This document shows positions 37,356 through 53,941 of a stretch of DNA of 54,100 bases, piece by piece. Position 1 is the stretch's first letter. Each line of letters begins with the position of its first letter. Made by a program: the position numbers and the translations under genes. Below the pieces are notes generated by a model, which made no database searches, was not told where the DNA came from, and saw only the letters and a list, made by a program, of their open reading frames with translations. The DNA is taken from contig CAYQWL010000002.1 of assembly GCA_964421195.1 (NCBI GenBank), positions 16,801 to 70,900 of the forward strand, written 5' to 3'. The DNA is from an uncultured bacterium (lineage in GTDB: Bacteria; Muiribacteriota; UBA9980).

Positions 37356-38568
37356 AACCGCCTCCGTCGGACATACGTTTTATAATATATTTCGATGCCT
37401 CGCACGATGAATTCATAAAATTATAAAGATAAATTTTCCGCAAGCGTTCAAACTCAGTTCGATATTCATTACGCCGCAGCATCAATTCTTCGATAGAAGA
37501 CAAAAGTAAGGAACGAACTTCGCCGGGTTTTATTATCTTTCCGCATAGCGGCCTTAATAAAAGCTCTACGGGCTCTAATTCGAGTTTTTCATATTCCTTA
37601 TTATCCACGCGGCATGGAGTGTCGATGAAAAGCGCCGGCCTTGAAGTACCGAAAGTATATTCCAGATATATTCCGGACCAATCGGTAATTAAAACATCTG
37701 CTTTATGAAGATTTTCATCTTTAAGCATATCGAGTTCAAGCGATATGTTTGAAATTGTCTCAATATAACGCGCTATTCGAGCAACGGCTCCGGGAAAACG
37801 TTTTATAAATTCAGGATGCGGCCTTATTACCGCATTAATATCAGGCGCATTCCTTAAACTTTCAATCATGTCGAATACCGCCGAATCGAGTATATTTCCA
37901 TCCGTCCAGGTAGGCGCTATCATTACCGAAATTTTTCTTCCGGCCGCGTCGCCGCCCGATACGCTTTGCATCCGTTCAAACTCGATATGATCTGAAAAAA
38001 TCTTTTCTATTCTATGATAACCGCATTCGACAAGTGTTTTGGATTTAAGGCCGTATATTTCTTCAGACCGGCGCAATTCGTTTTTTTGATGAGATCCGGT
38101 GCATAAAACGGCGTCATAATGATCGAACGCATTTTTACGATATTGAAGATGAGTGCTGCCGGCGGAATGAAAAACATATATATAATGAACCGGATTTATC
38201 GAACGTTTAATATAAAAATTATCAAGATCCGGCATTGTCATTAAAAAAACTTTAGAATCGAGATAAACCATAATAAAAGCAAGCAAATAATTTATATAAA
38301 ATGTCTTTATACCGCTTCCCGGATTTTTACGGGATTCAGAAATTTTCGCCGCCCGCGCGAATATGGAATCATTTATATCAGACGTAATATAAGCTATTTC
38401 AATATCATTATCAGCACGCAATAATTCGTTTATTATGCCTTCATAATACTGGTAATAAATATCGCTTTCCGAATAAAAAACGATGCGTCTGGCCTTCGCG
38501 GACGCCGCCGAAAAAAGCCTGACGCAATCTTTTATTTCTTTAATTAAATTAAAGAAACCTTTAAACAT
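37345..38568 (-). CDS. CDP-glycerol/polyol phosphotransferase family (TagB/TagF-like)
   Basis: YVFHS, ECGY, IAPTW, IRPHP, ADVLITDWSGIYLEY. Start set at ATG 38568 because the track start (38700) lies inside hydG. Confidence 0.8.
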   Translation of the reverse strand: MFKGFFNLIKEIKDCVRLFSAASAKARRIVFYSESDIYYQYYEGIINELLRADNDIEIAYITSDINDSIFARAAKISESRKNPGSGIKTFYINYLLAFIMVYLDSKVFLMTMPDLDNFYIKRSINPVHYIYVFHSAGSTHLQYRKNAFDHYDAVLCTGSHQKNELRRSEEIYGLKSKTLVECGYHRIEKIFSDHIEFERMQSVSGGDAAGRKISVMIAPTWTDGNILDSAVFDMIESLRNAPDINAVIRPHPEFIKRFPGAVARIARYIETISNISLELDMLKDENLHKADVLITDWSGIYLEYTFGTSRPALFIDTPCRVDNKEYEKLELEPVELLLRPLCGKIIKPGEVRSLLLSSIEELMLRRNEYRTEFERLRKIYLYNFMNSSCEASKYIIKRMSDGGGCDI

Positions 38569-39937
38569 AAATATCCCGTTCGCCCTTATCAAAGCGTTCG
38601 ATATATCCCGCAAAACGCTTCCGCTCTTCTTCTTCGAGCAATTCGTTTTTAAGTTTATCGATAAGCGCCATACCGATTTTTTTAGTATCAGGCGAAGCAA
38701 AATCTATTAAATACTCATAAAAAGTCAAAAGCCCATTTATATTACAGAATTCATGTATATGTCCCGTTTTAGAAAGCGCCATAAACGATTCTCCGGTTCG
38801 AAGACTGCGGTAACACGAAGTGCAAAACGACGGCAGAAAACCTTTAAAAGCAAGCGCCGATATTACCTCGTCGAGAGAACGCTCATCGGAAACGACGAAC
38901 TGCCCGGCGGCTTCTTTCGGATTGGAATAACCGCCGGGTTCAGTTTTAGAACCGGCGGAAAGCTGCGAAACGCCGAGAGTAACCAGTTCATCACGCAGTT
39001 CCGGAGCTTCACGCGTGGATAAAATCATTCCCGTATAAGGCACCGCAAGACGCAAAACGGCCACCGCTAATTTAAATTGTTCATCGGTAAGCCTGTATTT
39101 ATTCATATCGTTTATATCAAAACCGGCGGCCGGTTCAAGACGGGGAATCGAAATGGTATGCGGTCCGACGCCATACTTATCATCGAGATATTTAGCCTGG
39201 CTCAAAAGTGCGAGCGTTTCAAACTTATAATCATAAAGACCGTATAAAACACCTATTCCCACGTCATCAATGCCGGCCTGATAACATTTATCGAATATGC
39301 TTATACGCCTGTCATAATCTCTTTTAGGGCCGGATGGATGCATCTTCATATACGTTTCCCGGTGAAAAACCTCGTGAAATAGTTGATAAGTACCGATATT
39401 CGCATTTTTTATCTTTACGAGATCATCATGTTCGACCGGCGCTAAATTAACGTTAACGCGTCTGATTTTATTGCCTTTATAATCGACTTTATATATAGTT
39501 TCAATAGCGGCGGTAATATGATCCACGCCGCATTTATTTAAATCTTCGCCGGCGACGAGCAAAATACGTTTATGCCCGCTTTTTAATATATTTAAAGTCT
39601 CTTCCGCCACTTCTTCGAGGGAAAGAGTCTTACGGGCGATATCTTGATTGGATTTTTTAAAACCGCAATAAACGCAATTATTGATACAATAATTTGAAAT
39701 ATATAACGGCGCGAATAAAACCATACGCCTGCCGTATATTTTTTCTTTAACCGCCCGCGCGGCTTTTTTTATAGCGGCGATCATTTCAGAATCTTCACAA
39801 TTTAAAAGAACTGCCGCTTCTGATATTTTAAGCGGCTTCATTTCCATGCTCTTTTCTATTATGTTTAAAATCTCTGACCGGGCTGTATTTTTAGTCATTT
39901 CGATCGATTCGTTAATTTTATTTTCATCAATAACCAT
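38561..39937 (-). CDS. hydG: [FeFe]-hydrogenase H-cluster radical SAM maturase HydG
   Basis: FAPLYISNYCINNCVYCGF (CxxxCxxC), GTYQLFHE, DDVGIGVLYGL, GPHTISIPR, SAGSKT, C-terminal SFCTSCYR...FC auxiliary cluster. Start is 39937 or 39955. Confidence 0.97.
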   Translation of the reverse strand: MVIDENKINESIEMTKNTARSEILNIIEKSMEMKPLKISEAAVLLNCEDSEMIAAIKKAARAVKEKIYGRRMVLFAPLYISNYCINNCVYCGFKKSNQDIARKTLSLEEVAEETLNILKSGHKRILLVAGEDLNKCGVDHITAAIETIYKVDYKGNKIRRVNVNLAPVEHDDLVKIKNANIGTYQLFHEVFHRETYMKMHPSGPKRDYDRRISIFDKCYQAGIDDVGIGVLYGLYDYKFETLALLSQAKYLDDKYGVGPHTISIPRLEPAAGFDINDMNKYRLTDEQFKLAVAVLRLAVPYTGMILSTREAPELRDELVTLGVSQLSAGSKTEPGGYSNPKEAAGQFVVSDERSLDEVISALAFKGFLPSFCTSCYRSLRTGESFMALSKTGHIHEFCNINGLLTFYEYLIDFASPDTKKIGMALIDKLKNELLEEEERKRFAGYIERFDKGERDIYV

Positions 39938-39969
39938 AAAAACCCACCATTCCATTTCTAAGTGCGATA

Positions 39970-41481
39970 TTATTTATAAAGCGGCAGCCGGACTGTAAAC
40001 ACGCTTCCTTTCTGGTATTCACTATCAACGGTTACAGTTCCTTTCTGGGCCGTCACCAATTTTTTTACGACCGATAATCCAAGGCCGGTGCCGGATATTT
40101 TTGAAGTTTCTTTAGTCTTACACCTGAAAAACTCCGTAAACAATTTCGGCAGGTCTTCTTTTCTGATGCCGTAGCCTGTATCTTTAACGGATATTACGCC
40201 ATAACCGCCTTCACCGAAATAACTCACGCGTATTAAACCGCCTTCAGGCGTATATTTGATGGCGTTAGATATTAAATTATTAAGTATCATTTCCAGAGAT
40301 TTTCCATCGGCTAATATTTGATTATCAACCATTTTCAAATCTTTTTCCAGAATTATTTTTTTCTTTTTCATTTCCTGCGCAAAAAATTCAAGCACGTTTT
40401 CAAGTTTTTCAGTAATATCGACGGGTTTAATTTCAAGATTAAGACGATTGGTCTGATGCCGCGATATTTGAAGCAGATCGTTAACCATTTCAAGCAAAGT
40501 CTCCGAACGTTCTTTACAGCGGCCAAGTTTTTCAATGATTTTATCGCGGTCGGTTATATAACCGTCAAGTATCAAATAAATATATCCAAGCGAAGCGGAT
40601 ATCGGGGCTTTTATTTCATGCGCCACCATTGAAACAAACTGATTTTTAAGATTTTCTATTTCTTTAAGTTTGGTTATATCATTTAAAACAACGCAATAAC
40701 CTTCAATTTCATGATCGGTAACGACGGCCGCGCAGGTTGCCTGATAAAACATCTCGTTTATCCTTATTTCTTTTTGAATCATCGTAAGAGATTTATTTTC
40801 AATCATGGAATTAACGAGGGCCTTAATCTGATTAATAAATTCAGAATCGTAATCGGAAATTTTAGTATATAATTTTATTCTAACGTTTAAATCAATATTT
40901 TCAAAGCAAGGATTATAAAGCACTATTTCAAGCTTACTGTTTAATACTATAAGCGGATTGGCCATGCACTGAACTACGGTATGCATTTTTGACTTTTCCT
41001 GGCCGAGAATTTTAAGCGAACTTTCAGCTTCTTCTTTTAACTTTTTATTCTGTACAAGAAGCGTGCGGCGCGTCATAGATTTTTGAACCGCGTATAATAT
41101 TTGTTCAGGGCTGAAAGGTTTGGAAATAAAATCGAAAGCGCCGTGTTTAATGGAATTAACGGCGGTATCTATAGAAGAGTAAGCCGTAACCATAATAGGA
41201 ACGATAGTCGGATATAATTCATTTATGCGGGTAATAAATTCGATGCCGTCCATACCGTCCATTTTCATATCGACAACCGTTATATCGACGCCGGCATGAT
41301 TTTTTTCGAGATAATCGAGCGCTTCAAAGGCCGACGGAAAAGGAATCGCGTCATAGCCGTTTTTTCTGATAACTTTCGTAAGAGCGATTCTAAACTGATC
41401 TTCATCGTCTATTACCAGAATTCTACCTGAAAAATTTTGCGTATCCATGAGTGCTCCTTTTAAATCCGGTTTTATTTTCAA
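39970..41481 (-). CDS. Hybrid response regulator-histidine kinase (REC, PAS-like, HisKA, HATPase)
   Basis: ILVIDDE, VDMKMDGMDG, VAHEIKAP, NLISNAIKY, DTGYGI, GTGLGL. Confidence 0.93.
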   Translation of the reverse strand: MKIKPDLKGALMDTQNFSGRILVIDDEDQFRIALTKVIRKNGYDAIPFPSAFEALDYLEKNHAGVDITVVDMKMDGMDGIEFITRINELYPTIVPIMVTAYSSIDTAVNSIKHGAFDFISKPFSPEQILYAVQKSMTRRTLLVQNKKLKEEAESSLKILGQEKSKMHTVVQCMANPLIVLNSKLEIVLYNPCFENIDLNVRIKLYTKISDYDSEFINQIKALVNSMIENKSLTMIQKEIRINEMFYQATCAAVVTDHEIEGYCVVLNDITKLKEIENLKNQFVSMVAHEIKAPISASLGYIYLILDGYITDRDKIIEKLGRCKERSETLLEMVNDLLQISRHQTNRLNLEIKPVDITEKLENVLEFFAQEMKKKKIILEKDLKMVDNQILADGKSLEMILNNLISNAIKYTPEGGLIRVSYFGEGGYGVISVKDTGYGIRKEDLPKLFTEFFRCKTKETSKISGTGLGLSVVKKLVTAQKGTVTVDSEYQKGSVFTVRLPLYK

Positions 41482-41602: not shown

Positions 41603-43606
41603 CTATCCGAGAAGCCCTGCGCTCAAATTAGATTTAACGGGTAAAGTTATCTTAAAAGTAGTGGATTCGCCATAAACACTATCGACGGTAATTTTACCTC
41701 GATGCATTTTTATTATCCCATAAACGACGGGCAATCCAAGTCCCGTTCCCTTGCCATAACCTTTAGTAGTAAAAAATGGAGTAAACAATTTCGGCATTTT
41801 ATCTTTAGGAATGCCGATACCGTTATCATTAAAAGATATTATGACTTCTTCATCATGTTTTACCACGTGCACATTAATAATTCCCGGAGAACGTTTAGCC
41901 TCGATCAAAGCGTCTTTCGAATTAGAAATCAAGTTAGTAAAAACCTGAAGCAGCGCCGTTTGATCGGCTTCGATAACAAGCGAATCAGGGCAATCGACTT
42001 TAATAGAAATATTAATGCCGATAGAAACATAATCATTTCTTATTTTAGTGCATAAGTCTTTTATAAAAGCGGAAAAATCAAATTCAATTATAGTAAGTTT
42101 ATTTTCTCTGGAAAAATTAAGCATTCCGGTTATAATTTCTTTAGTACGGTTAATTTCGCTAATAATAGTTTTAACGTCATCTTTCAGTTCGTCGTTTTCG
42201 ATCTGCTCGTTCAGCATGTGCGCATACAGCAGAACCGTGCCGAGAGGATTATTTATTTCATGCGCGACTCCGGCAGCCATCTGACCGAGCGAAACTAATT
42301 TTTCTTTCTGTATAAGCTCATTTTGCGTAGATTTAAGCATTTGATTCGACTGTTGTAACAAATTAAGATTTTCTTCAAGTTTTTCTATAACATAAGGCAG
42401 GCACATTTCTTTTTCGGCGAGGCCGGCTATTATAGCGCGCGCCTTGGCGCGGCACGAAGGATAACCGCATGCGCCGCAATTTAGTTCATCTTTAGGCTGG
42501 GTTTTTCCCATTTCTATAAGCACTTTTTTTATTTCCGCCGAATCGGCTTCTTTAATTTCCGATACTTCTTCCGATTCAAATACCACGCTTAAATCAATAT
42601 TTTTATATTTTTCAATTTCTATTTTCCAGCGTTGCTGATTACTTTGAGACATACGGCTTTTAATATATTCAGACATTTGAGATTTTTTTTCAAAATAATT
42701 AAGCTCGGAACATATTTTAGGACCGTCGATGCAGCCGAGGCAAAAGAGCATATCAATAAATTTACCGTCAAGCGAACCTTTTTTAATCGAATCGAGCACC
42801 ATTAAAACACGGTCTTTGCCCTCTGTAACTATAGTTTCGTTATCTACTATATCCTCAGTTTTTTCGGCGCATTTTAACAGCCCTCCGGTAACCGGGTAAA
42901 TAGCTCCAAGATTGGCGTGCGGCGGATCAAAATCGATTTTATTGAGCTTTTCTATATCAATTTTATTTTCAATAATCCATAACTTTAATTCTTCAAATGT
43001 AATAACGTAATCAATGTCACGGATATAATTGCTTCTTTCATCTATTTTCGCTATGCACGGCCCGATAAACGCGGTTCGGCGGCCGGGGTTTTTCAATCTG
43101 GCCACGCGCGCGGAAGCCACCATAGGGCTGACTATCGGCGCTAAATATTTGATCAATTCGGGCTCGTATTTTTGAACGTATTTAACTATGGCAGGGCATG
43201 GAGTTGCAATTACGGTTTTTCCTTTATTTTCGGAAAGATATTTTTTATAAGCCAGAGTTACGAGATCGGCGCCAAAACCCACTTCATAAACATTTTTAAA
43301 GCCAAGCGCCTTTAAAACGCTGACGAGTTTAACGCCCACGTCCATAAAACTTACGACAAAAGACGGCGCAACCAATGCGTCTATATCTTTAAACGCGATA
43401 TCATTTTTAAGTTCGTTAAAATATGAAAGCACCACTTTAGCGTTTTGCGAACAAACCGTAGTGCAATGGCCGCATGAAATACAACGGAAGCTGATAACGC
43501 TCGCCTTGCCGTCTTTAACTTTAATGGCATGCGCCGGGCAGCTTTTTATACATGCATAACATTTTTTACATTTCTCTCCGATAGTGGATACTACTGACAC
43601 GCTCAT
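41603..43606 (-). CDS. Sensory group C [FeFe]-hydrogenase-like domain fused to histidine kinase (HydS-HK)
   Basis: 2x[4Fe-4S] CKKCYACIKSC and CISCGHC; variant H-cluster motifs TPCP, GPCIAKIDE, MLFCLGCIDG; FeS domain NCGACGYPSC; AHEINNPL, NLISNS, DNGIGI, GTGLGL. Confidence 0.9.
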   Translation of the reverse strand: MSVSVVSTIGEKCKKCYACIKSCPAHAIKVKDGKASVISFRCISCGHCTTVCSQNAKVVLSYFNELKNDIAFKDIDALVAPSFVVSFMDVGVKLVSVLKALGFKNVYEVGFGADLVTLAYKKYLSENKGKTVIATPCPAIVKYVQKYEPELIKYLAPIVSPMVASARVARLKNPGRRTAFIGPCIAKIDERSNYIRDIDYVITFEELKLWIIENKIDIEKLNKIDFDPPHANLGAIYPVTGGLLKCAEKTEDIVDNETIVTEGKDRVLMVLDSIKKGSLDGKFIDMLFCLGCIDGPKICSELNYFEKKSQMSEYIKSRMSQSNQQRWKIEIEKYKNIDLSVVFESEEVSEIKEADSAEIKKVLIEMGKTQPKDELNCGACGYPSCRAKARAIIAGLAEKEMCLPYVIEKLEENLNLLQQSNQMLKSTQNELIQKEKLVSLGQMAAGVAHEINNPLGTVLLYAHMLNEQIENDELKDDVKTIISEINRTKEIITGMLNFSRENKLTIIEFDFSAFIKDLCTKIRNDYVSIGINISIKVDCPDSLVIEADQTALLQVFTNLISNSKDALIEAKRSPGIINVHVVKHDEEVIISFNDNGIGIPKDKMPKLFTPFFTTKGYGKGTGLGLPVVYGIIKMHRGKITVDSVYGESTTFKITLPVKSNLSAGLLG

Positions 43607-43699
43607 CCCGCCCCGTCATATAAAAAATGATCAGGCTCAAAGCGGGACGGCATATAACCGGCGCGCTTCGAGGCCTGATATATCAGGTGTTCGTTATTT

Positions 43700-44107
43700 T
43701 TAATGACCGTGAGAATTATTGACCGCGGTATTTAATATACCGTTGACCTTTTCAAGTAAAATACCGGGATTAATCGGTTTATCAAGAAACATATCCGCTT
43801 TGATCCATTGCCGTTCCTTGGCTTCGTTCAAATCGAACTGGATTTCAGATTCCTGATTAACCGAAGTAGCGAGTATAACCGGAACGTCGGGACGCGCTTT
43901 TTTAATTTTATAAGCGAGTATAAAACCGGCATCGTAAGTTTCCATAATTAAATCGAGTATTACGAGATCGGGGGTGAATTTTTCGAATTTTTCCCAGCCT
44001 TCCTCGCCGGTTTCAGCGGTTTCTATTGAATATCCATTAGATGATAATGTTTCCGTAATTATTTCCCTTACATCGGAATCGTCGTCAACTATCAATATTT
44101 TCTTCAT
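43700..44107 (-). CDS. Single-domain response regulator (REC)
   Basis: ILIVDDD, LVILDLIM, ILATS, LDKP. Confidence 0.93.
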   Translation of the reverse strand: MKKILIVDDDSDVREIITETLSSNGYSIETAETGEEGWEKFEKFTPDLVILDLIMETYDAGFILAYKIKKARPDVPVILATSVNQESEIQFDLNEAKERQWIKADMFLDKPINPGILLEKVNGILNTAVNNSHGH

Positions 44108-44109
44108 GA

Positions 44110-45831
44110 TTATTTATCCCCCTTATACCTTGTGTGTAATAGCTCGTGCGCGTCATGTTCGTTTATATGCTTTTCATAAAGTTCTTTAACGTCGGGATTT
44201 TCATGTGAACGGCGGATGACGGAATTTTCATCGACTTTATAAGTGGTTTTAGTTCGCGATTTCAAAAGATCGGCATCGGTGTTAAACGGCTGACCGGCGC
44301 CTCCAACGCAACCCGCGGGGCAGCTCATAATTTCGACGAAATGAAGATCGGATTTTCCGGCGGAAATATCTTCTAATATCTCTACGGCGTTTCCAAGCCC
44401 ATTCACGACGCCTACGTTAATCTTTGTTCCATCTATATCGACCGTGGCGCGTTTAATTCCGGCCATACCACGAACCGGCTTGCAATCGATATTTTCAAGT
44501 TCTTTTCCCGTAACCATATTATACGCGGTTCTGATAGCGGCTTCCATAACGCCGCCCGTCGCGCCGAATATTTTACCCGCGCCTGAGGCATGAGCGAAAG
44601 GCCTGTCAAAATCAGAACTCTGTATTTTTTCATATTGTATGCCGAATTCATCGAGCAGCGAAAACAGTTCACGCGTGGTTAAAACGGCATCCACATTGGC
44701 CATGCCTTCATTTTGAAGCTGAGGCCGAACTATTTCAGATTTTTTAGCGACGCAGGGCATTACCGATACCACAAAAAGATCTTTCGCTTTAACTTTCAAC
44801 AGTTTTTCACTGAGATGTTTAAGCAGCGCGCCCTTCATTATATGGGGCGATTTGCAGCTCGACAGATGTTTTGTATGCTTCGGATAAAACGTTTCAATAA
44901 AATTAATCCATGCGGGACAGCACGAAGTAAACATCGGAAGCGGCTTATGTTTTTTAGTCAGCCGTTCGACGAGTTCTTTAGCTTCTTCCATAATAGTTAT
45001 ATCCGCCGCCGTACAGGTGTCAAAAACAAAATCAACGCCTATGCCGCGCAACGCGCCGATTATTTTACCGACAGCCTCTTCGACCGGTATCGATTTTTTA
45101 AAATATTCTGGAAATGTTACATGACATGCGGGCGCGAATTGAAAAGCCACCTTTTTTCCAGGATTGATTATCGCATCGATAACCGTTTTTTTATGAGGAA
45201 TTTCACGTAAAGCGCCGACGGGGCAAGCCATAATACACTGTCCGCAGGAAACGCAATTACCTTCAGCGAGAGATTTATAACTTCCCGGCGCTACATGCGT
45301 GCTGAAGCCGCGATTAGCGAAATCAATAGCCGACACTCTTTGCTTTTCGGCGCATACGGTAACGCAGCGGCCGCAAAGTATGCATTTCGCCATATCGCGT
45401 TCAACGGCGGGCGACGCTTTATCGATAACCATTTTCTTTTTAGCTCCGCCCTTAAAGGCGACTTCGTCAACGCCGTATTGTTTTGAAAGATCCTGCAACA
45501 GGCAATTTCCGCTTTTTGAACATGTAAGGCAGTCCTGTGGATGGTTAGAAAGTAAAAGTTCGATTATTTTCTTACGCGACATTCTAACCTGCGGCGAATC
45601 GGTGCGCACCTGCATTCCAGCTTCGGCCGGATACGAACAGGAAGCTATAAGGCGGCCGGTTTTAACGTCTTCGACCACGCAGATCCGGCATGCGCCTGAA
45701 GGCTTATAGCCTTCCATATAACAGAGTGTTGGAATAAACAGGCCGGCTTTTTTAGCAACCTGATAGATAGTTTCGCCTTTAATAAACTCGACTTCTTTAT
45801 TATTTATTGTCATTTTCAATTTCGTCTTCAC
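44110..45831 (-). CDS. hydA: [FeFe]-hydrogenase catalytic subunit HydA (group A, multimeric/bifurcating type)
   Basis: [2Fe-2S] C..GACRIC, His-ligated HPQDCLTC, 2x[4Fe-4S], canonical L1 TSCCPAW, L2 MPCVAKKSE, L3 EIMSCPAGCVGG; small-subunit RRSHENP...LLHT. Confidence 0.97.
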   Translation of the reverse strand: MKTKLKMTINNKEVEFIKGETIYQVAKKAGLFIPTLCYMEGYKPSGACRICVVEDVKTGRLIASCSYPAEAGMQVRTDSPQVRMSRKKIIELLLSNHPQDCLTCSKSGNCLLQDLSKQYGVDEVAFKGGAKKKMVIDKASPAVERDMAKCILCGRCVTVCAEKQRVSAIDFANRGFSTHVAPGSYKSLAEGNCVSCGQCIMACPVGALREIPHKKTVIDAIINPGKKVAFQFAPACHVTFPEYFKKSIPVEEAVGKIIGALRGIGVDFVFDTCTAADITIMEEAKELVERLTKKHKPLPMFTSCCPAWINFIETFYPKHTKHLSSCKSPHIMKGALLKHLSEKLLKVKAKDLFVVSVMPCVAKKSEIVRPQLQNEGMANVDAVLTTRELFSLLDEFGIQYEKIQSSDFDRPFAHASGAGKIFGATGGVMEAAIRTAYNMVTGKELENIDCKPVRGMAGIKRATVDIDGTKINVGVVNGLGNAVEILEDISAGKSDLHFVEIMSCPAGCVGGAGQPFNTDADLLKSRTKTTYKVDENSVIRRSHENPDVKELYEKHINEHDAHELLHTRYKGDK

Positions 45832-45837
45832 GCTAAA

Positions 45838-47658
45838 TCACTCCTTCACGATAGCTGAGAATTTACATGTGCTCAGGCAGAGCAGACAGCCTGTGCATTT
45901 ATCGGCCGCGATAACATAAGGCGTGCCGGGCTTTCCGTAAATCGCGCCCTGCGGGCATTTACGAGCGCAAAGACTGCATCCTCTACATTTTTCGGTAACT
46001 ATAACGCATTTAACCATCGATGAGCAAACGTGAGTGGGGCATTTTTTTTCAAAAATATGAGCTTCATATTCGTCACGAAAATGTTTGAGCGTGGATAAAA
46101 CCGGGTTGCTCGCGGTCTGTCCGAGGCCGCAGAGCGAACTATTTTTAATAACTGAACATAGTTCTTCGAGTTCGAGAACGCCTTTAAATCTAAGAAGCTC
46201 ATCGGAAGATTTTTTCTGATTCGACACATTGAGCACTATTCTATCGAGTATTTCATAAAGCCTTTTCGTGCCTTCACGGCAGGGGATACATTTACCGCAG
46301 GATTCGTTCTGGATAAAATTCATGAAAAAACGAGCCACATCGACCATACAGGTGGTATCGTCCATTACGACCATACCGCCGGAGCCCATTATTGCGCCGT
46401 TTTCTTTAAGAGATTCATAAGTTATTTTAGTATCCATAAGTTTTTCCGGCATACATGCGCCGGAAGGGCCGCCGATCTGTACGGCTTTAAATTTACGGCC
46501 TTCAGGAACGCCGCCGGCTATATCGTTAATCAGGGTCCTCAATGTAATTCCCATCGGCACTTCTATAAGGCCGGAATATTTAACGCGGCCCGTTACGGCA
46601 AAAACTTTCGTGCCGAGCGATTTTCCTTCGCCGAACGCCGCGAATTTAGAGGAGCCTTCACGCAATATCCAGGGAACGTTAGCAAAAGTTTCGACGTTAT
46701 TAATAACGGTCGGCTTACCAAAAAGGCCTTTTTCGGCAGGATATGGCGGGCGCGGAGTCGGCATTCCACGTTTACCTTCTATAGAAGCGAGAAGCGCGGT
46801 TTCTTCACCGCATACAAAAGCTCCTGCGCCCTTTTTAACTTTAAGTTCAAAGCAAAACTTAGAATTAAGAATATTTTTACCGAGCACGCCTTTTTCTTTA
46901 CACTGCTTGATAGCGTTTTCGAGGCGTTCGATAGCGAGCGGATATTCGGCCCTCGCATAAATATATCCGAAAGAAGCGCCGATAGCGTAAGCGCCGATAA
47001 TTATACCTTCTATAACTCTGAACGGATCGCTTTCGAGCACGGCGCGATCCATAAACGCGCCGGGATCGCCTTCGTCGGCGTTCATAACTATATATTTTTT
47101 ATTACCAGGCTGTTTATACGCCAGGTCCCATTTAATGGAAGTCGGAAACCCGCCGCCGCCGCGGCCCCTTAATCCGGATTTTTTTATCTCGTCTATAACA
47201 TCCTCCGGTTTCATAGCTGAAAGCACTTTCTTTAAAGCCACGAATCCAAGAGCTTTTGAATAATCATCAAACGAATAAGGGTTTATTATACCGCAATTTT
47301 CAAGCGCCACTCTTTTTTGACGGGCAAAATAAGGCGTTTCATAAACGCATGGCATATTCGGAGTTTTTTTATAAGTGCCGAGAAGCCATTTATTGGAATA
47401 ATTTTTATTATCGATCATTTCGATTAAAAACTCGGTAACGTTTTGAGGAGTTATTTCGCAATAAGCCATACGCGGCATGGAAGAAAATTCGAAATCGACC
47501 ATAACCTCGCGCGAGCAATAACCGATACAACCGACCGGTATCATTTCAAAAGCCATTTTACGAACATCGAGAAAATCTTCGATTGTTTTTTTTATTTCGA
47601 GCGCTCCCTGCGCAAGACCGCAGGTACCCATCCCGATATATACCTTTAACTTATCCAT
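45838..47658 (-). CDS. hydB: NADH-binding flavin subunit HydB (NuoF-like)
   Basis: N-terminal thioredoxin-like FeS, SGLRGRGGGGFPT, NADEGDPGAFMDR, GAFVCGEET, ESCGKCIPCREG, C-terminal 2x[4Fe-4S]; GGAGG SD. Confidence 0.96.
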   Translation of the reverse strand: MDKLKVYIGMGTCGLAQGALEIKKTIEDFLDVRKMAFEMIPVGCIGYCSREVMVDFEFSSMPRMAYCEITPQNVTEFLIEMIDNKNYSNKWLLGTYKKTPNMPCVYETPYFARQKRVALENCGIINPYSFDDYSKALGFVALKKVLSAMKPEDVIDEIKKSGLRGRGGGGFPTSIKWDLAYKQPGNKKYIVMNADEGDPGAFMDRAVLESDPFRVIEGIIIGAYAIGASFGYIYARAEYPLAIERLENAIKQCKEKGVLGKNILNSKFCFELKVKKGAGAFVCGEETALLASIEGKRGMPTPRPPYPAEKGLFGKPTVINNVETFANVPWILREGSSKFAAFGEGKSLGTKVFAVTGRVKYSGLIEVPMGITLRTLINDIAGGVPEGRKFKAVQIGGPSGACMPEKLMDTKITYESLKENGAIMGSGGMVVMDDTTCMVDVARFFMNFIQNESCGKCIPCREGTKRLYEILDRIVLNVSNQKKSSDELLRFKGVLELEELCSVIKNSSLCGLGQTASNPVLSTLKHFRDEYEAHIFEKKCPTHVCSSMVKCVIVTEKCRGCSLCARKCPQGAIYGKPGTPYVIAADKCTGCLLCLSTCKFSAIVKE

Positions 47659-47808
47659 AAAATTTTTCCTCCAGGATTATATTTATGATATATTTTTATT
47701 TATTCATAACTTCATGCTTTATATTTTACATTATGTTTTATATCTTACATTTTATAAAAACAATAAAGCATTAGATGTTTTTCAATCATCCGAAATTCGG
47801 AATTTAAA

Positions 47809-48969
47809 TTAATGCGCCGCGGCCTGACTTTTATTAGAATCTTTTTCATTAAGATAATCGACTTTAAGCTTATCTACTATTGCAAGAGTCTTTGCGACGT
47901 CGAGATGCCCGTAAAATTTATCATTAATCATAATAACCGGCGCGATAGAGCACGCGCCAAGGCAGGCGACCTGCTGAAGTGAAAATATTTTATCGCGGGT
48001 AGTCTGACCGACCTCTATCTTTAAATGCTCTTTAAGCGCATTTAATATATTAAGAGAGCCTTTAACGTGACATGCGGTGCCGCGGCATACGGCTATTTGA
48101 AAATGCCCCGGCGGAGTGAGTTTAAATTGATTATAAAAAGTCGCCACTCCATATACTTTAGAATCGGCTATACCGAGATATTCCGAAATTTTGATTATAT
48201 CGTCTTTCGAGATATAACCTCTTATATCCTGAACATCCTGCAATATTGGAATTAAGTTATCCCTTGATTTAGCGTATTTATTAAACGCCTCATAAATTCG
48301 TTTTTCGATGTCACCGTTAACCATTTCAATTTTCCCTCCATTGTTTCTATAGTTGTTCAGATTAATTTGATATGACAGGAACATATAACTTGCGGCCAGA
48401 TTCTCGTTTTTAACGATCGCGTCGTCCGGCAGTTTTAAATGAACCGGCGCGAAATTCCAGAAATAACGAACACCAAGTTCATATAATTTAGCCGCTACTT
48501 TAGCCGCGCCATTCGCGGGCAATGTCAAAACGGCAAGCTTAACGCCAAGCGTACTGATTACTTCTGAAAGATTGTCAAGCGGTAATATTTTAAAAGTTTC
48601 AACCGTAGTGCCGATAACCTGTGGTGAATGATCGAATATCGCGACTATTTTCAAACCGTAATTAAAAAAATTCGAATAATTACTCACGGCCCTGCCAAGG
48701 TTGCCGGCCCCGATGACTATCGCTTTATTAACGGTAGTCGTACCAAGAACCATTTTAATCGCCGAAATAAATTCATTTATTTCATAGCCCTTATTAGGCT
48801 TTCCATTCAAATTAAGAAATGAAAGGTCTTTTTTTATATTATTCTGGTCTATAAAAAAATGTTTTGAAAGAATCGACGAGCTTATAAATTCATGGCCCTG
48901 CTCTTTTAAATGACACGCTAACTGAAGATACCTGGGCAATCTTTCAACGATTCTAAGACTGAAATCCAT
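47809..48969 (-). CDS. rex-hydC: In-frame fusion of redox-sensing repressor Rex (aa ~1-205) and HydC/NuoE-like [2Fe-2S] subunit (aa 216-386)
   Basis: Rex: ERLPRY, IKKDLS, GKPNKGY, GAGNLGRA, NFAP. HydC: LIPILQDVQ, VATFYNQF, VCRGTACHVKG, CLGACSIAPV. No stop codon between the two parts. Confidence 0.9.
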   Translation of the reverse strand: MDFSLRIVERLPRYLQLACHLKEQGHEFISSSILSKHFFIDQNNIKKDLSFLNLNGKPNKGYEINEFISAIKMVLGTTTVNKAIVIGAGNLGRAVSNYSNFFNYGLKIVAIFDHSPQVIGTTVETFKILPLDNLSEVISTLGVKLAVLTLPANGAAKVAAKLYELGVRYFWNFAPVHLKLPDDAIVKNENLAASYMFLSYQINLNNYRNNGGKIEMVNGDIEKRIYEAFNKYAKSRDNLIPILQDVQDIRGYISKDDIIKISEYLGIADSKVYGVATFYNQFKLTPPGHFQIAVCRGTACHVKGSLNILNALKEHLKIEVGQTTRDKIFSLQQVACLGACSIAPVIMINDKFYGHLDVAKTLAIVDKLKVDYLNEKDSNKSQAAAH

Positions 48970-48992
48970 ATATCGTTCGCCCCATTAAAGAT

Positions 48993-49010
48993 TAGTTATT
49001 TTTTTCACTA
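48993..49010. promoter_or_regulatory. Putative Rex operator
   Basis: The 18-bp site reads TAGTGAA-AAAA-ATAACTA on the minus strand, an imperfect palindrome resembling TTGTGAA-N4-TTCACAA / TTGTTAA-N4-TTAACAA. It lies just downstream of the -10 box. Confidence 0.6.
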
Positions 49011-49015
49011 TCAAA

Positions 49016-49044
49016 ATGATACACTTTTTTCAAATTAATGTCAA
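49016..49044 (-). promoter_or_regulatory. Sigma-70 promoter of the rex-hydC operon
   Basis: Minus strand TTGACA (49044-49039), N17, TATCAT (49021-49016). Confidence 0.7.
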
Positions 49045-49495
49045 GTTAATTTCGAGCATTTTTTGGTATTTTTTAGTTTTTTTTACAAAAAAGAGAAAAA
49101 AAATATCCAATTTATTTTATAACATTATTAATACAATATTTTTGAAAAAATATGTATTTTTTCACGCTAATCATTTAAATAAACTTAATATAACAACTAT
49201 AAAAACTTCTGGAACCGATTACGAATTTCCCTGTAAACACATTATTTTTTTTAAAAAAAATCAGCCTTTTTTTAATTAAGCTTATTTTTAGATTAATTAT
49301 ATTCATGTATATAATTTTAAAAATTATATTTTTATACATTTTTTTGATTTTTTTCTTGATTTTTTTATTTTATATGGTATAATTAATTTAACCTGAGTTA
49401 TGTTACTTTTTTCAACTCATTCGGAAACAGTGCAAGGGTTCGTTATTCTTTGAAAATTTGGGCTGGCCATTATAGCGGTCCGGGGATGGTGCAGT

Positions 49496-49942
49496 ATGTT
49501 AGAAAAAGTGAAAATCCTGCTTGCCGAAGACGATTTGAAAACAGCTTCATTAATTTACGAGCTGCTTTCTTCGAACTCCATCTACGAAATAAAGTGGGTA
49601 GAAAACGGGGCTGTAGCGGTAGAATCCGCTCTCAAAGAGAAGTTCGATATTATTTTCATGGACATTCAAATGCCGGTAATGGACGGCATCGAAGCCGTTA
49701 AAAAGCTTCGTTCTTCGGGCTATTCAGGCTTAATAGTCGCCCTGACAGCTTATTTTGAAAAAGAAAGATGCATGGCCGCCGGAATGAACGATTATATTCA
49801 AAAACCCTTTTCCATAAAAGATTTCATAAAAAAAATGAATGAAATAAATTATAAAAAAGGCGCAAACGAAGAACTGCGCCCCGCCTCGCCGCTTGAGCAG
49901 AGCGAAGCGCCCGTCGATCTTGAAAAATTTTTAAATCAATAA
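49496..49942 (+). CDS. Single-domain response regulator (REC)
   Basis: ILLAEDD, IIFMDIQMPVMDG, ALTA, YIQKP. Confidence 0.93.
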   Translation: MLEKVKILLAEDDLKTASLIYELLSSNSIYEIKWVENGAVAVESALKEKFDIIFMDIQMPVMDGIEAVKKLRSSGYSGLIVALTAYFEKERCMAAGMNDYIQKPFSIKDFIKKMNEINYKKGANEELRPASPLEQSEAPVDLEKFLNQ

Positions 49943-49969: not shown

Positions 49970-50791
49970 ATGAACGAAAGATTCAATTTTGACAATTATG
50001 TTGACAGGGCATACGTAACCGGCAATATGCTCTTAGAAGCCGGCGAGCATGACCGCGCGCTCGAATGTTTCAATAAAGCTCTTGAATTAGACGAAGGATT
50101 TACCTGCGCCATGTTTCATAAAGGATTAGCTTTAGTGAACCTCAAGCGTTATGACGAAGCTATATGCTGCTACAATATGCTTCTTGACATAGACCCGAAA
50201 GACACAGGAGTGCTCGAACACAAGGGCGTCGCGCTCATTGAAATAAATCATTACGAAGAAGCCGCGAAATGCTATAAAAAACTTCTCGAATTAGAGCCTG
50301 ACAATTCCCGCGCATATCTAAAAATGGGGCATATTTATCAAATATATGGCAATTACAAAGAAGCCTTATCATATTTTGACAAATCGCTCGAATTAAATTA
50401 CGGCGACAGGCGGGCCTGGTATCTTAAAGGCATCGTTCTTGCCGAGCAGGGTTTACTTTCCTCGATAAAACATAAATTCAACGAAGCGCTTAAATGTTTT
50501 GAAAAAGCTTTAGAATGCGCCCCACGCGATACGGACGTATTAAAGGACAAAGCTAAGGTTCTGACTTATCTCGGCGACAACGAACGCGCTCTTATAATCT
50601 ATCATAAAATCAGCGATATAATTCCCGGCGATCCTATCGCCATTACCGCTCTTGCAAAACTTTACAAAAAAATGAACCGTCTCGAAGATTCGTTAGCATA
50701 TTACAAAAAACTTCTCGAAATAAATACGGATACAACCATAACCGCCGAAATAGAATATCTTACCAACCGCCTCAAAAACAAACATTATTAA
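49970..50791 (+). CDS. Tetratricopeptide repeat protein
   Basis: Repeated A..C[FY].KALEL.P/ KG.AL motifs at about 34-aa spacing. Confidence 0.92.
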   Translation: MNERFNFDNYVDRAYVTGNMLLEAGEHDRALECFNKALELDEGFTCAMFHKGLALVNLKRYDEAICCYNMLLDIDPKDTGVLEHKGVALIEINHYEEAAKCYKKLLELEPDNSRAYLKMGHIYQIYGNYKEALSYFDKSLELNYGDRRAWYLKGIVLAEQGLLSSIKHKFNEALKCFEKALECAPRDTDVLKDKAKVLTYLGDNERALIIYHKISDIIPGDPIAITALAKLYKKMNRLEDSLAYYKKLLEINTDTTITAEIEYLTNRLKNKHY

Positions 50792-51931: not shown

Positions 51932-53941
51932 ATGTCAATCGATTTCGATAAATTAGAAAAAAACATCGCCGCGGGTTCCGGCGAAGCTTCGAAGCGCGCC
52001 GTACTGGCGGAGCTTTCTGATTCAAACGACCCGCGGGCGAAAAAAATATTAGAAAACCTCGCGCGCGATAAGAGCATGGCTATTAAGCTGCTCGCCTCTT
52101 CGTATATAAAAAAAAATTTTTCGGAAGGCGCCCAACCCGAAAACTCTTCCACGGCAACTTATAACGCCGCGAGCGGTTCGAGCGCAAGGCAGGCGGCACC
52201 GTCCGTTTCATCCGCCGTATCCTCGCAGGCGGCGGGCGGCGATCTTTTGCAAAACCTTTTTAACGCCGATTTCGTTAAATTCGTCGCCGCGCCGCTCGGA
52301 ATAATAGCCATTTTGGGTTTGTTTTCACCCGCGATACCGGCTTTTTTCTTTTTCGGCGCATACCTTTTACTGGTAATCACCGTTTCTTTATTTTATGATA
52401 AACAAATAGCTATTCCATCGGTTTTAGTAATATGTATGATAGCCATGCTTTTTTATGCCGCTGGCCTCATCGTAAATTTCAAGCCGACCTTTCTTTTAAT
52501 GGCCGTTTTTACAATCGCGGGAACGTATATATCTTTCGTTACGACCGAACTGCGAGAAAAAAACATCAACTCGCGCTCAACGGTAGAAGATTTAAAATCA
52601 CAGGTCATGCAGCTCAAAAGGCTTCTTGACAAACGTAAAGATTTTAATGAAGCGCAAAAAGACATGGATATTATCACTAAAATGAAAAACGATCTTAACG
52701 TTAAATCGCGGCGTCTCGGCGAAACGATGATTCAGATACACGAGCTTATTTCCAGCCAGAAAACCGATGAAATTATAGAACGAGTGACCAAACTGCTTAC
52801 AAGGCAGCTCGGCGCCCGATCGGTATCCGTCTGGATAGCCAACTCAAAATTTCATTCAATATACCCGCTCGGCTGTTCCGAAAAGCATATAGATCCACAA
52901 AGCTACATGAACATGAACATCTCCCTCGACGAAGAGACTATCATTACCAAAGTATCGCGTGAAGGCGGATTTTATACGGGGGAAGAACTGAAAAAAATAT
53001 CCGAATACGAACCATTTTCGACGGAATACGACATCAAAAGTGAATTCAGCGTATCGATGGATGCCGGTAATAAAATAATCGGGGTAATTAACTGTGAAGA
53101 AATCACCGACATGTTCGAATTAAACGATGAAAATAAGAAATTAATAAAATTAATCGCCGACGTTGCGGCATGGGCGTTAAAAAATGCGGGTGATCTGGAG
53201 TTATCGAAACGCGATCTACAAAACATCAAACAGCTTTCAGACAGAGAGCGGGAAGAAAAAAAGAAAATTAGAAGCATATTCGATAAATTCGTATCGCCGA
53301 AGGTAATCGAAGAAATTATGAATAACCCGGCAAGTCTTTCTCTCGGCGGCAAGCGGCGCGCCATAACTATGTTTTTCGCCGACATACGCGGTTTTACTTC
53401 GATGAGTGAAACCCTCGCCGGCAATCCTGAAGTAGTTTTAGATGTGGTCAACCGTTTTCATTCCTCGATGACCGATATAATAATCGACCACGGCGGAACT
53501 ATCGATAAATATATAGGCGATGCTTTAATGGCGCTTTTCGGGGCCCCGATGAGCAGCTCTAAAATGGAAGACGACGCTTTTAATACCATTGCGGCCGCGC
53601 TATCCATTAAAAGCGAGTGCGTAAAAATACGTGAAAAACTTATTCATGAAGGAAAAACCCCCGTTAATGTCGGAATTGGCATTAACACCGGTGAAGTGGT
53701 AGTCGGCATGGTCGGCTCTACAAAAATGATGAACTATACGGCTATTGGCGACGCCGTAAACACGGCGGCGCGTATCGAGGCCAATGCAGGCGGCGGACAG
53801 GTTTTAATATCACGCGCCACTTACGAGCTCGTTAAAGACCGCATAGAAGCCAACGCACTTGAAGCCATAACGGTAAAAGGAAAACGCGAGCCCGTCGAAA
53901 TATTTGAAGTTATCAGCTTAAAACAATCGACGGATATGTAA
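51932..53941 (+). CDS. Membrane class III adenylate cyclase (HEAT-like N-terminus, TM helices, coiled coil, GAF, cyclase)
   Basis: FFADIRGFT, TIDKYIGDALMA, NYTAIGDAVNTAARIE, VKGKREPV; hydrophobic block at aa ~115-200; GAF-like IIGVINCE. Confidence 0.92.
   Translation: MSIDFDKLEKNIAAGSGEASKRAVLAELSDSNDPRAKKILENLARDKSMAIKLLASSYIKKNFSEGAQPENSSTATYNAASGSSARQAAPSVSSAVSSQAAGGDLLQNLFNADFVKFVAAPLGIIAILGLFSPAIPAFFFFGAYLLLVITVSLFYDKQIAIPSVLVICMIAMLFYAAGLIVNFKPTFLLMAVFTIAGTYISFVTTELREKNINSRSTVEDLKSQVMQLKRLLDKRKDFNEAQKDMDIITKMKNDLNVKSRRLGETMIQIHELISSQKTDEIIERVTKLLTRQLGARSVSVWIANSKFHSIYPLGCSEKHIDPQSYMNMNISLDEETIITKVSREGGFYTGEELKKISEYEPFSTEYDIKSEFSVSMDAGNKIIGVINCEEITDMFELNDENKKLIKLIADVAAWALKNAGDLELSKRDLQNIKQLSDREREEKKKIRSIFDKFVSPKVIEEIMNNPASLSLGGKRRAITMFFADIRGFTSMSETLAGNPEVVLDVVNRFHSSMTDIIIDHGGTIDKYIGDALMALFGAPMSSSKMEDDAFNTIAAALSIKSECVKIREKLIHEGKTPVNVGIGINTGEVVVGMVGSTKMMNYTAIGDAVNTAARIEANAGGGQVLISRATYELVKDRIEANALEAITVKGKREPVEIFEVISLKQSTDM

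Follow-up and report, generated by a model that had tools for sequence, protein, structure and literature searches.

A Rex-HydC fusion gene at the head of an [FeFe]-hydrogenase operon in Candidatus Wallbacteria, and its apparent origin by loss of the rex stop codon

The window analyzed here is a stretch of 54,100 nucleotides (nt) from an uncultured bacterium (GTDB lineage Bacteria; Muiribacteriota; UBA9980; contig CAYQWL010000002.1, positions 16,801 to 70,900), and the gene under study, rex-hydC, joins a repressor of the Rex family, which senses reduced nicotinamide adenine dinucleotide (NADH), to HydC, a [2Fe-2S] subunit of [FeFe] hydrogenases. The rex-hydC gene (47809..48969, minus strand, as are all the features below unless otherwise stated) is a single ATG-to-stop open reading frame (ORF) of 386 amino acids (aa) with no in-frame stop. 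Pfam recognized in its product the domains Put_DNA-bind_N (aa 6-50), CoA_binding/Rossmann (aa 81-176) and 2Fe-2S_thioredx (aa 227-369), i.e., a complete Rex (aa 1-209) is followed by an 8-aa linker (aa 210-217) and then by a complete HydC/NuoE. A sequence-only reading of this DNA had claimed one 386-aa frame holding Rex and a HydC with its four Cys, placed before hydB and hydA and constituting the sole hydC of the window. The frame and its domains were borne out by the ORF and by the Pfam and NCBIfam matches, hydB and hydA were both found downstream on the same strand, and tblastn detected neither a second rex nor a second hydC within the window. The same reading knew of no described Rex-HydC fusion, and our literature search likewise found no paper describing one; the fusion proteins are already present in public databases, named either 'Rex' or 'NuoE'.

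The N-terminal half shares with the characterized Rex repressors (T. aquaticus T-Rex, B. subtilis Rex, Thermoanaerobacter RSP and T. maritima Rex) the winged helix, the GxGxxG Rossmann fold, the FD motif and a predicted C-terminal helix, and differs from them in that a complete 170-aa HydC domain extends beyond the putative dimer-swap helix. The winged helix-turn-helix (wHTH) DNA-binding domain (aa 1-78; 48736..48969) matched Pfam PF06971 at aa 6-50 with 36.4 bits (cutoff 27), and is followed by the NAD(H)-binding Rossmann domain (aa 79-190) and the putative dimer-swap helix (aa 191-209), which together occupy 48343..48735. The NCBIfam Rex equivalog NF003994 was matched over aa 6-206 with 195 bits (cutoff 130), and the NAD-site residues GAGNLG (87-92), A94, Y98 and F112-D113 were invariant in the alignment of the fusions. 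In the AlphaFold2 monomer model the helix spanning aa 191-209 was predicted with good confidence and aligned with its C-terminal counterpart in Rex structures already solved. A Foldseek search with the N-terminal half returned Rex structures, with target-normalised template modeling (TM) scores of 0.84-0.91 against the RSP and T-Rex crystal structures, including the DNA-bound RSP 3WGI. By sequence as well, this half matched crystal structures of Rex. When the nonsynonymous divergence (dN) was compared by region among the Wallbacteria fusions, the wHTH (0.04-0.18) and the HydC domain (0.09-0.17) were the slowest-evolving parts of the protein, followed by the Rossmann domain (0.17-0.37), the linker (0.08-0.58) and the C-terminal tail (0.44-1.11); the synonymous divergence (dS) was saturated, so that the dN values alone are usable and the per-domain dN/dS ratios are unreliable. 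Judged by the scores above cutoff, the invariant NAD site, the low dN of the wHTH and the superposition of the model on known Rex structures, the Rex part of the fusion is intact.

The HydC/NuoE-type thioredoxin-like [2Fe-2S] module (aa 218-370; 47860..48318) is likewise full length. PF01257, which comprises a helical N-terminal part and a thioredoxin-like part, was matched at profile positions 3-145 of 145 over aa 227-369 (E 2.8e-50), the NuoE equivalog NF005722 over aa 220-367 with 151 bits (cutoff 141), and the four cysteines (Cys295, 300, 336 and 340) were invariant in the alignment of the fusions. Among sequences of the PDB, the C-terminal half matched NfnC (2.2e-41), T. maritima HydC 7P5H (2.5e-39) and HydC 8A6T, and Foldseek returned HydC, NfnC and Nqo2-like chains with target-normalised TM scores of 0.69-0.77. 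The module thus resembles the HydC/NuoE/Nqo2/HoxE subunits in its full-length PF01257 domain, in its four Cys ligands, in an identity of 44-49% over the Foldseek alignments, and in being encoded immediately 5′ of a NuoF-like hydB and of hydA; with unfused HydC proteins it shares 50-60% of its residues. It differs from these free-standing subunits, which are about 150-190 aa long, in that a transcription factor precedes it in the same polypeptide. The AlphaFold2 monomer had a mean predicted local distance difference test (pLDDT) score of 88 and consisted of two confident domains separated by a low-confidence joint at about aa 210-217.

Downstream of the fusion lie hydB (45838..47658; 606 aa), which encodes a NuoF-like subunit for flavin mononucleotide (FMN) and NADH with a C-terminal 2x[4Fe-4S] domain, and whose Shine-Dalgarno (SD) sequence, GGAGG, is placed 9 nt 5′ of the ATG, and hydA (44110..45831; 573 aa), which encodes the catalytic subunit of a group A [FeFe] hydrogenase of the HydABC type. 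HydA matched TIGR02512 with 454 bits (cutoff 406), and its best NCBIfam match was NF040763 (NADH-dependent group A6), with 727 bits, under the cutoff of 765. A receiver-only response regulator recognized by Pfam (43700..44107; 135 aa) is the last conserved gene of the operon, and is kept after hydA both in Wallbacteria and in distant relatives. No terminator was found between the fusion gene and hydB, nor among the genes that follow it in the operon. The three-subunit set of a HydABC enzyme is therefore present, with HydA carrying the H-cluster domain, HydB the FMN/NADH site and ferredoxin-like clusters, and HydC, and the gene order hydC-hydB-hydA is conserved among the relatives. Together, the HydB, HydA and HydC modules would form an NADH-linked, probably ferredoxin-confurcating [FeFe] hydrogenase, an activity that we infer from the domains.

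Since rex and hydC are usually separate genes in the wider family, and often lie in the same frame, a stop or frameshift missed in sequencing or assembly could produce an apparent fusion; the sequence-only reading had itself pointed to a possible miscalled stop at 48325-48370 (for example at the TAT in AAC-TAT-AGA, Y207). This codon and the whole linker were open in every relative. A search of 5.8 billion proteins recovered 17 further clusters with all three domains (67-90% identity, 382-389 aa), and the assemblies behind them came from JGI, ENA, NCBI and Logan and belonged, wherever named, to Candidatus Wallbacteria; the same operon followed the fusion in those relatives whose contigs extend far enough. 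At the DNA level, the linker frame was open in nine independent Wallbacteria assemblies, with indels in multiples of three. An artefact would have to recur in 18 clusters of 67-100% identity, from four sources and with differing in-frame linker lengths, and can be set aside for practical purposes. A single mutation would turn any of the linker codons TAT, AGA, GGA, AAA and GAA into a stop, and to regain a stop there would simply bring back the common ancestral arrangement, but no reversion was observed in Wallbacteria despite the saturation of synonymous sites, which argues for selection on the fused state. On this comparative evidence, the fusion is genuine and fixed in the Wallbacteria clade, and it is probably maintained by selection.

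The origin of the fusion could be traced by comparison with its unfused relatives. A metagenome scan with a distant fused relative (P0021) gave hundreds of loci, and the longer contigs carried rex, hydC, an often enlarged hydB, hydA, a receiver gene and a HydS-like hydrogenase-histidine kinase gene. We then considered 74 adjacent metagenomic rex-hydC pairs, in which hydB comes next, followed by hydA, the receiver gene and the hydS-kinase gene where the contig is long enough, and just 2-3 of them were fused. In the unfused pairs the rex stop is followed within a few nt by an SD sequence and the hydC ATG, and hydC lies in the frame of rex in 32 pairs and in another frame in 40. The rex stop, the SD sequence and the hydC ATG of these relatives map exactly to the linker of the fusion; for instance, the unfused hydC of L016 starts with AAGGAG, 8 nt and ATG, and aligns with the linker Met of the fusion. 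Since the SD sequence and ATG within the linker align with the native translation signals of unfused hydC, the alignment indicates that the fusion arose in Wallbacteria by loss of the rex stop between two normally adjacent, separate genes, so that the intergenic spacer became a linker. The unfused order Rex box-rex-hydC-hydB-hydA, of which the fusion is a variant, is widespread and has been published before. In Caldithrix abyssi (Cabys_3675-3679) rex is the first gene of the hydABC cluster, a Rex box precedes it by 38 bp and the genes are unfused (PMC5317091); gene order and regulatory logic are the same, and the difference is that in such clusters the rex stop is present and hydC is translated separately, whereas in Wallbacteria the stop was lost and the fusion became fixed in the clade.

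P0021 and P0022 were considered as a small second fusion lineage, and this was rejected, their relatives being overwhelmingly unfused pairs that tblastn had aligned across the stop. In two relatives (L193, 6168-6767 (-); L203, 3727-4302 (-)) a second, free-standing rex lies divergently beside the rex-hydC operon, and is followed by a hydS-histidine kinase gene.

The linker (aa 210-217; 48319..48342), of low pLDDT in the model, is short but predicted to be flexible, and it retains the translation signals of hydC. In the window it reads AAC AAT GGA GGG AAA ATT GAA ATG, with the retained ribosome-binding site GGAGG at 48339-48335 (Gly211-Gly212) and, 10 nt after it, the retained start codon at 48324-48322 (Met216). 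In 7 out of 7 Wallbacteria sequences examined, the Gly-Gly pair is encoded by GGA GGK, so that GGAGG is kept, 7 or 10 nt 5′ of the conserved ATG, and the rest of the linker is variable; GGA represents 21% of the Gly codons across the three hyd genes. The arrangement GGAGG-N4-11-ATG occurs nine times in the whole window, six times at the start of a long ORF, including hydB, and once at the internal linker site. The ribosome-binding site of the fusion gene itself, GGGG, is weaker than the internal GGAGG. The conservation of both GGAGG and ATG at the nucleotide level suggests that a free HydC of 171 aa is probably still translated beside the 386-aa protein, in which case the enzyme could do without the fused protein as its structural subunit.

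These signals raise the question of whether the fused tail does anything. The full-length protein could be an ordinary Rex with an inert HydC tail, the functional HydC arising from the internal start and the stop loss being neutral. The internal SD and ATG conserved in all seven sequences, the fact that the GGAGG-ATG signal marks true gene starts in the window, and the 71-72 of 74 related operons that function with separate genes would all fit such a passenger. However, no stop was regained in the 18 clusters or the nine assemblies, all the linker indels are in frame, and Rex is joined to a [2Fe-2S] domain again in no fewer than three further settings, one of them a large family far from hydrogenase genes, so that we consider an inert tail unlikely. 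Given that the frame has stayed open across the whole clade, the HydC module may have a role of its own in the full-length protein.

Upstream of rex-hydC, the best promoter match in the region 43500-49600 was a sigma-70-type promoter (49016..49044) that agrees with the consensus at 11 of 12 positions, with the -35 box TTGACA at 49044-49039, a 17-nt spacer and the -10 box TATCAT at 49021-49016. Both boxes were kept in the eight Wallbacteria upstream regions that reach the -35 position, and the ninth (L091) begins just before the -10 box. The comparison of the upstream regions of the relatives then located a candidate Rex operator, TAGTGAAAAAAATAACTA (48993..49010), which lies 5 nt past the -10 box, overlaps the expected transcription start and is present in a single copy in the window. 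The core T.G.GAAA.AAATAAC.A of this 18-mer was invariant in the nine assemblies amid diverged flanks, and at the same position relative to the -10 box. It agrees with TTGTGAANNNNTTCACAA at 10 of 14 positions and with the degenerate consensus at 11 of 14, and it departs from the operators of the characterized Rex repressors in its degenerate right half, which reads ATAACTA instead of TTCACAA. With up to 3 mismatches, no canonical N4 Rex box was found near the operon, and the number of hits in the window was at chance level. An RNA element as the cause of the conservation found no support (minimum free energy -1.6 kcal/mol, z = +0.8, no Rfam match), and an apparent compensatory change within the operator (TAGT..ACTA versus TGGT..ACCA) was inconsistent across lineages and was not used as evidence.

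The assignment was made from conservation, position and analogy with the homologous operons, in which the boxes are clear. The fused relatives P0021 and P0022 carry a perfect box, TTGTGAATTGTTTCACAA, at the equivalent promoter position, and near-identical boxes are found in L199, TTGTTAAAAAAATAACAA, and in the Omnitrophota locus L136, TAGTGAATTTAATCACGA, directly after the -10 box. A Rex box with up to 2 mismatches occurs within 250 nt upstream of rex in 41 of 62 related operons, and at the same threshold 41 of the 46 Rex boxes in 472 kb lie upstream of rex in related operons. A clostridial Rex consensus, TTGTTAANNNNTTAACAA, is documented (PMC5367854), and there is experimental precedent for the repression of bifurcating [FeFe] hydrogenases by Rex, as in Caldicellulosiruptor, which resembles the present case in the Rex control of a bifurcating hydrogenase (PMC8579813). 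The perfect boxes, the boxed related operons and the near-copies in L199 and L136 make it credible that TAGTGAAAAAAATAACTA is a Rex-type operator of the fusion operon, i.e., a candidate palindromic operator at the promoter of an operon for an NADH-consuming enzyme, as for other Rex repressors. In a scan of all the genomes most matches were due to chance; among the matches listed, each Wallbacteria genome had a single site, and in every case it lay at this promoter. In the window, a weaker second operator-like copy, AGTTGAAAAAAGTAACAT, lies at 49400-49417 (-), about 390 nt ahead of rex-hydC and about 80-95 nt before a divergent receiver-only gene, and L004 has a second near-copy of the operator at 7860-7877 (-), about 100 nt upstream.

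Because the candidate operator overlaps the transcription start, the repressor very probably controls the enzyme to which it is joined, as the sequence-only reading had proposed, and autoregulation of the enzyme by its attached repressor is well supported by these comparisons. A Rex half that has lost its DNA binding, and is attached to the hydrogenase only to bind NAD(H) in a regulatory or structural role, would be compatible with the recognition-helix motif, which is IKKDLS in the fusion and (I/V)R(K/R)D in most of the solved Rex structures aligned, with the modest score of the Pfam wHTH match (36 bits, and 'weak' in some relatives), and with the lack of a canonical Rex box (at most 3 mismatches) beyond chance in the window. 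Nevertheless, we judge this very unlikely: few parts of the protein are as conserved as the wHTH, a conserved candidate operator lies at the transcription start, the homologous operons are clearly under Rex-box control, and the recognition helix of RSP (3WG9), a structurally characterized repressor of the Rex family, also deviates from the motif (IRQDL).

The joining of Rex to a [2Fe-2S] domain is not rare. In Spirochaetia (P0121 family), more than 120 clusters (90% identity) encode Rex followed by a diverged NuoE-like domain, in about 384 aa and with four Cys (for instance L010, 8001-9140, and L012, 8001-9155, on contigs of 3.2 and 1.56 Mb from metagenome-assembled genomes). Their neighbors are UPF0164, mazG, rodA, pbp2 and mreDCB, and neither hydrogenase genes nearby nor a Rex box within 8 kb were found. 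In Omnitrophota (P0133/P0387), proteins of about 300 aa consist of Rex and the cluster-binding thioredoxin-like half only. The Omnitrophota locus L136 (3618-8900) contains hydC, hydB, a hydA with a C-terminal [2Fe-2S] domain, a 299-aa Rex-thioredoxin-like gene, and genes for PAS and SpoIIE-phosphatase proteins, and its Rex-like box follows the -10 box upstream of hydC. Both groups resemble the Wallbacteria fusion in that Rex precedes a thioredoxin-like [2Fe-2S] domain with four Cys. The Spirochaetia proteins differ from it in being encoded away from hydrogenase genes and in having a linker free of any SD-ATG relic, and the Omnitrophota proteins in having only the cluster-binding half and being encoded after hydA in an operon with its own hydC. 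In distance trees the Wallbacteria, Spirochaetia and Omnitrophota fusions did not group together, and the nearest neighbors of each were unfused proteins; this neighbor-joining analysis of separate origins has no bootstrap support and is to be read together with the mostly unfused relatives of P0021 and P0022. Proteins of 390-440 aa with a C-terminal Rex were considered as reversed HydC-Rex fusions and rejected, since Pfam shows a tandem Rex-Rex, and N-terminal extensions on 'HydC-only' matches were mostly over-called ORF starts rather than extra domains. The tandem Rex-Rex proteins (394-443 aa; P0122, P0125, P0126 and P0127) are possible single-chain dimers, and P0182 and P0028 are, respectively, a 377-aa fusion of Rex to a response-regulator receiver and a fragment whose receiver-like N-terminus is joined to HydC.

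The sequence-only reading had suggested that the repressor might be sequestered into HydABC or might read the Fe-S redox state; these are hypotheses, and the Spirochaetia and Omnitrophota fusions keep both a tethering of the repressor and an Fe-S sensing function plausible. According to the latter, the HydC-type [2Fe-2S] domain would be a second sensor (of the ferredoxin pool, of the redox state of the cluster or of O2) rather than an enzyme subunit, and the operon would respond to each of the two donors from which a confurcating hydrogenase takes its electrons. The cluster-binding fold is the common denominator of all the Rex-[2Fe-2S] fusions: the four Cys are kept in the more than 120 Spirochaetia clusters, which lie among cell-wall and housekeeping genes without nearby hydB or hydA, and the Omnitrophota Rex carries the cluster-binding half alone, beside a separate hydC. 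The Wallbacteria module, however, is HydC over its full length, shares 50-60% identity with genuine HydC proteins and takes the operon position of hydC. Any communication between the cluster and the wHTH would be hypothetical, and the linker, though short, is predicted to be flexible; we consider a dual-input sensor improbable here. A broader proposal, which we offer as a speculation with the odds against it, is that the fusions of Wallbacteria, Spirochaetia and Omnitrophota make up a class of redox regulators with two inputs that has yet to be described. If so, the Rossmann domain would read the NADH/NAD+ ratio and the cluster domain would read the redox state of ferredoxin or of the Fe-S cluster, or dock on HydB, a confurcating hydrogenase would be expressed according to both of its electron donors or to how far it is assembled, and, as a corollary, Rex and HydC might interact physically even where they are encoded by separate adjacent genes.

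Beyond the receiver-only gene that closes the operon, the HydS-like gene (41603-43606) encodes a sensory [FeFe]-hydrogenase domain fused to a histidine kinase (Fer4, Fe_hyd_lg_C, FeS, HisKA and HATPase_c), and is followed by a hybrid receiver-kinase gene (39970-41481). These two genes and the receiver-only gene (43700-44107) look like an H2-sensing phosphorelay, and the HydS-like kinase/receiver group is kept beside rex-hydCBA not only in Wallbacteria but also in numerous distant relatives. Just past the sensor genes lies the gene for the [FeFe]-hydrogenase maturase HydG (38561-39955; TIGR03955, 505 bits, cutoff 312), and in the relative L001 HydF is found in the corresponding place. On the other side of rex-hydC, past the divergently oriented receiver-only gene (49496-49942), come genes for a tetratricopeptide repeat protein (49970-50791, plus strand) and for a protein of 669 aa that ends in an adenylate/guanylate cyclase domain (51932-53941, plus strand). 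In many GC-rich relatives (L016, 8665-11937; many of L138-L217) hydB is about 1.4 kb longer, and the hydB of L016 encodes 1090 aa with a GltD-like Pyr_redox_2/Fer4_20 module, which suggests that this hydrogenase uses another nucleotide, or an extra one.

Taken together, the locus is probably best explained as a maintained rex-hydC fusion that arose by stop loss and acts as an NADH-responsive autorepressor of the hydrogenase operon. From what is known of the Rex family and from the candidate operator, the protein would be an autorepressor whose C-terminus is a hydrogenase subunit: when NADH rises, Rex would be released and the operon transcribed, and the hydrogenase would then dispose of the excess reductant as H2, which would close the feedback loop. 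One mRNA would, with reasonable probability, give two products, i.e., a modest amount of Rex-HydC from the weaker first ribosome-binding site and free 171-aa HydC from the strong GGAGG-ATG, and the mismatch between the amounts needed of a repressor and of an enzyme subunit would thereby be resolved. More tentatively, and with the balance somewhat against it, the HydC module might dock the repressor onto HydB or HydABC, so that the availability of the repressor would mirror the state of the enzyme, in a trigger-enzyme-like manner. In the T. maritima HydABC complex, the HydB/HydC lobes are peripheral, and HydA has a mobile 'bridge' domain homologous to the C-terminal 82 residues of HydC (PMC9499530). 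The position of HydC in peripheral lobes makes an N-terminal appendage sterically conceivable, and together with the homology between bridge and HydC it means that a copy of this fold borne by Rex could plausibly dock there.

The reading of the fusion as a maintained autorepressor has several points weighing against it. The fusion-bearing organisms are all uncultured, and with dS saturated a proper dN/dS estimate is precluded. The AlphaFold2 model, a monomer only, had a predicted TM score (pTM) of 0.54, so that the mutual orientation of the Rex and HydC halves is uncertain. The conserved internal SD-ATG means that the enzyme might be made without the fusion. As for the operator, the 10/14 match of TAGTGAAAAAAATAACTA to the general Rex consensus is alone not above chance in AT-rich DNA, and the genome-wide operator scan, swamped by chance matches, is informative about the regulon for the site at this promoter alone. 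Finally, the extra rex in L193 and L203 shows that some genomes have two Rex proteins at this locus, and a separate rex in the Wallbacteria genomes might be the actual regulator.

Trigger enzymes are known in which a DNA-binding domain is carried by a redox enzyme that represses its own operon, as in PutA. Judging from the sequence, Rex-HydC resembles them in that an operator-binding domain and a part of the controlled enzyme are found in one polypeptide, and differs from them in that the folds are unrelated, the Rex half has its own NADH sensor and the enzyme half may be made separately. Both halves of Rex-HydC look functional and the frame is maintained, but the conserved internal start may uncouple the role at the operator from that in the enzyme, and a relocation of the protein between DNA and enzyme would be hypothetical.

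In practical terms, the naming of these proteins as 'Rex' or 'NuoE' conceals the other half of the fusion. The locus also offers a clean natural case of the birth of a fusion by stop loss, with the downstream ribosome-binding site and start codon probably staying in use. Rex is an established regulator of fermentative hydrogenases, and its gene has been described at the head of a hydABC cluster; in both cases, Rex and the hydrogenase had been treated as separate molecules linked solely via the NADH pool. The clade-wide fusion, together with the recurrent Rex-[2Fe-2S] fusions, provides 'Rosetta-stone' evidence that Rex and a HydC-type domain may work in contact, and hints that the regulator and the hydrogenase touch each other.

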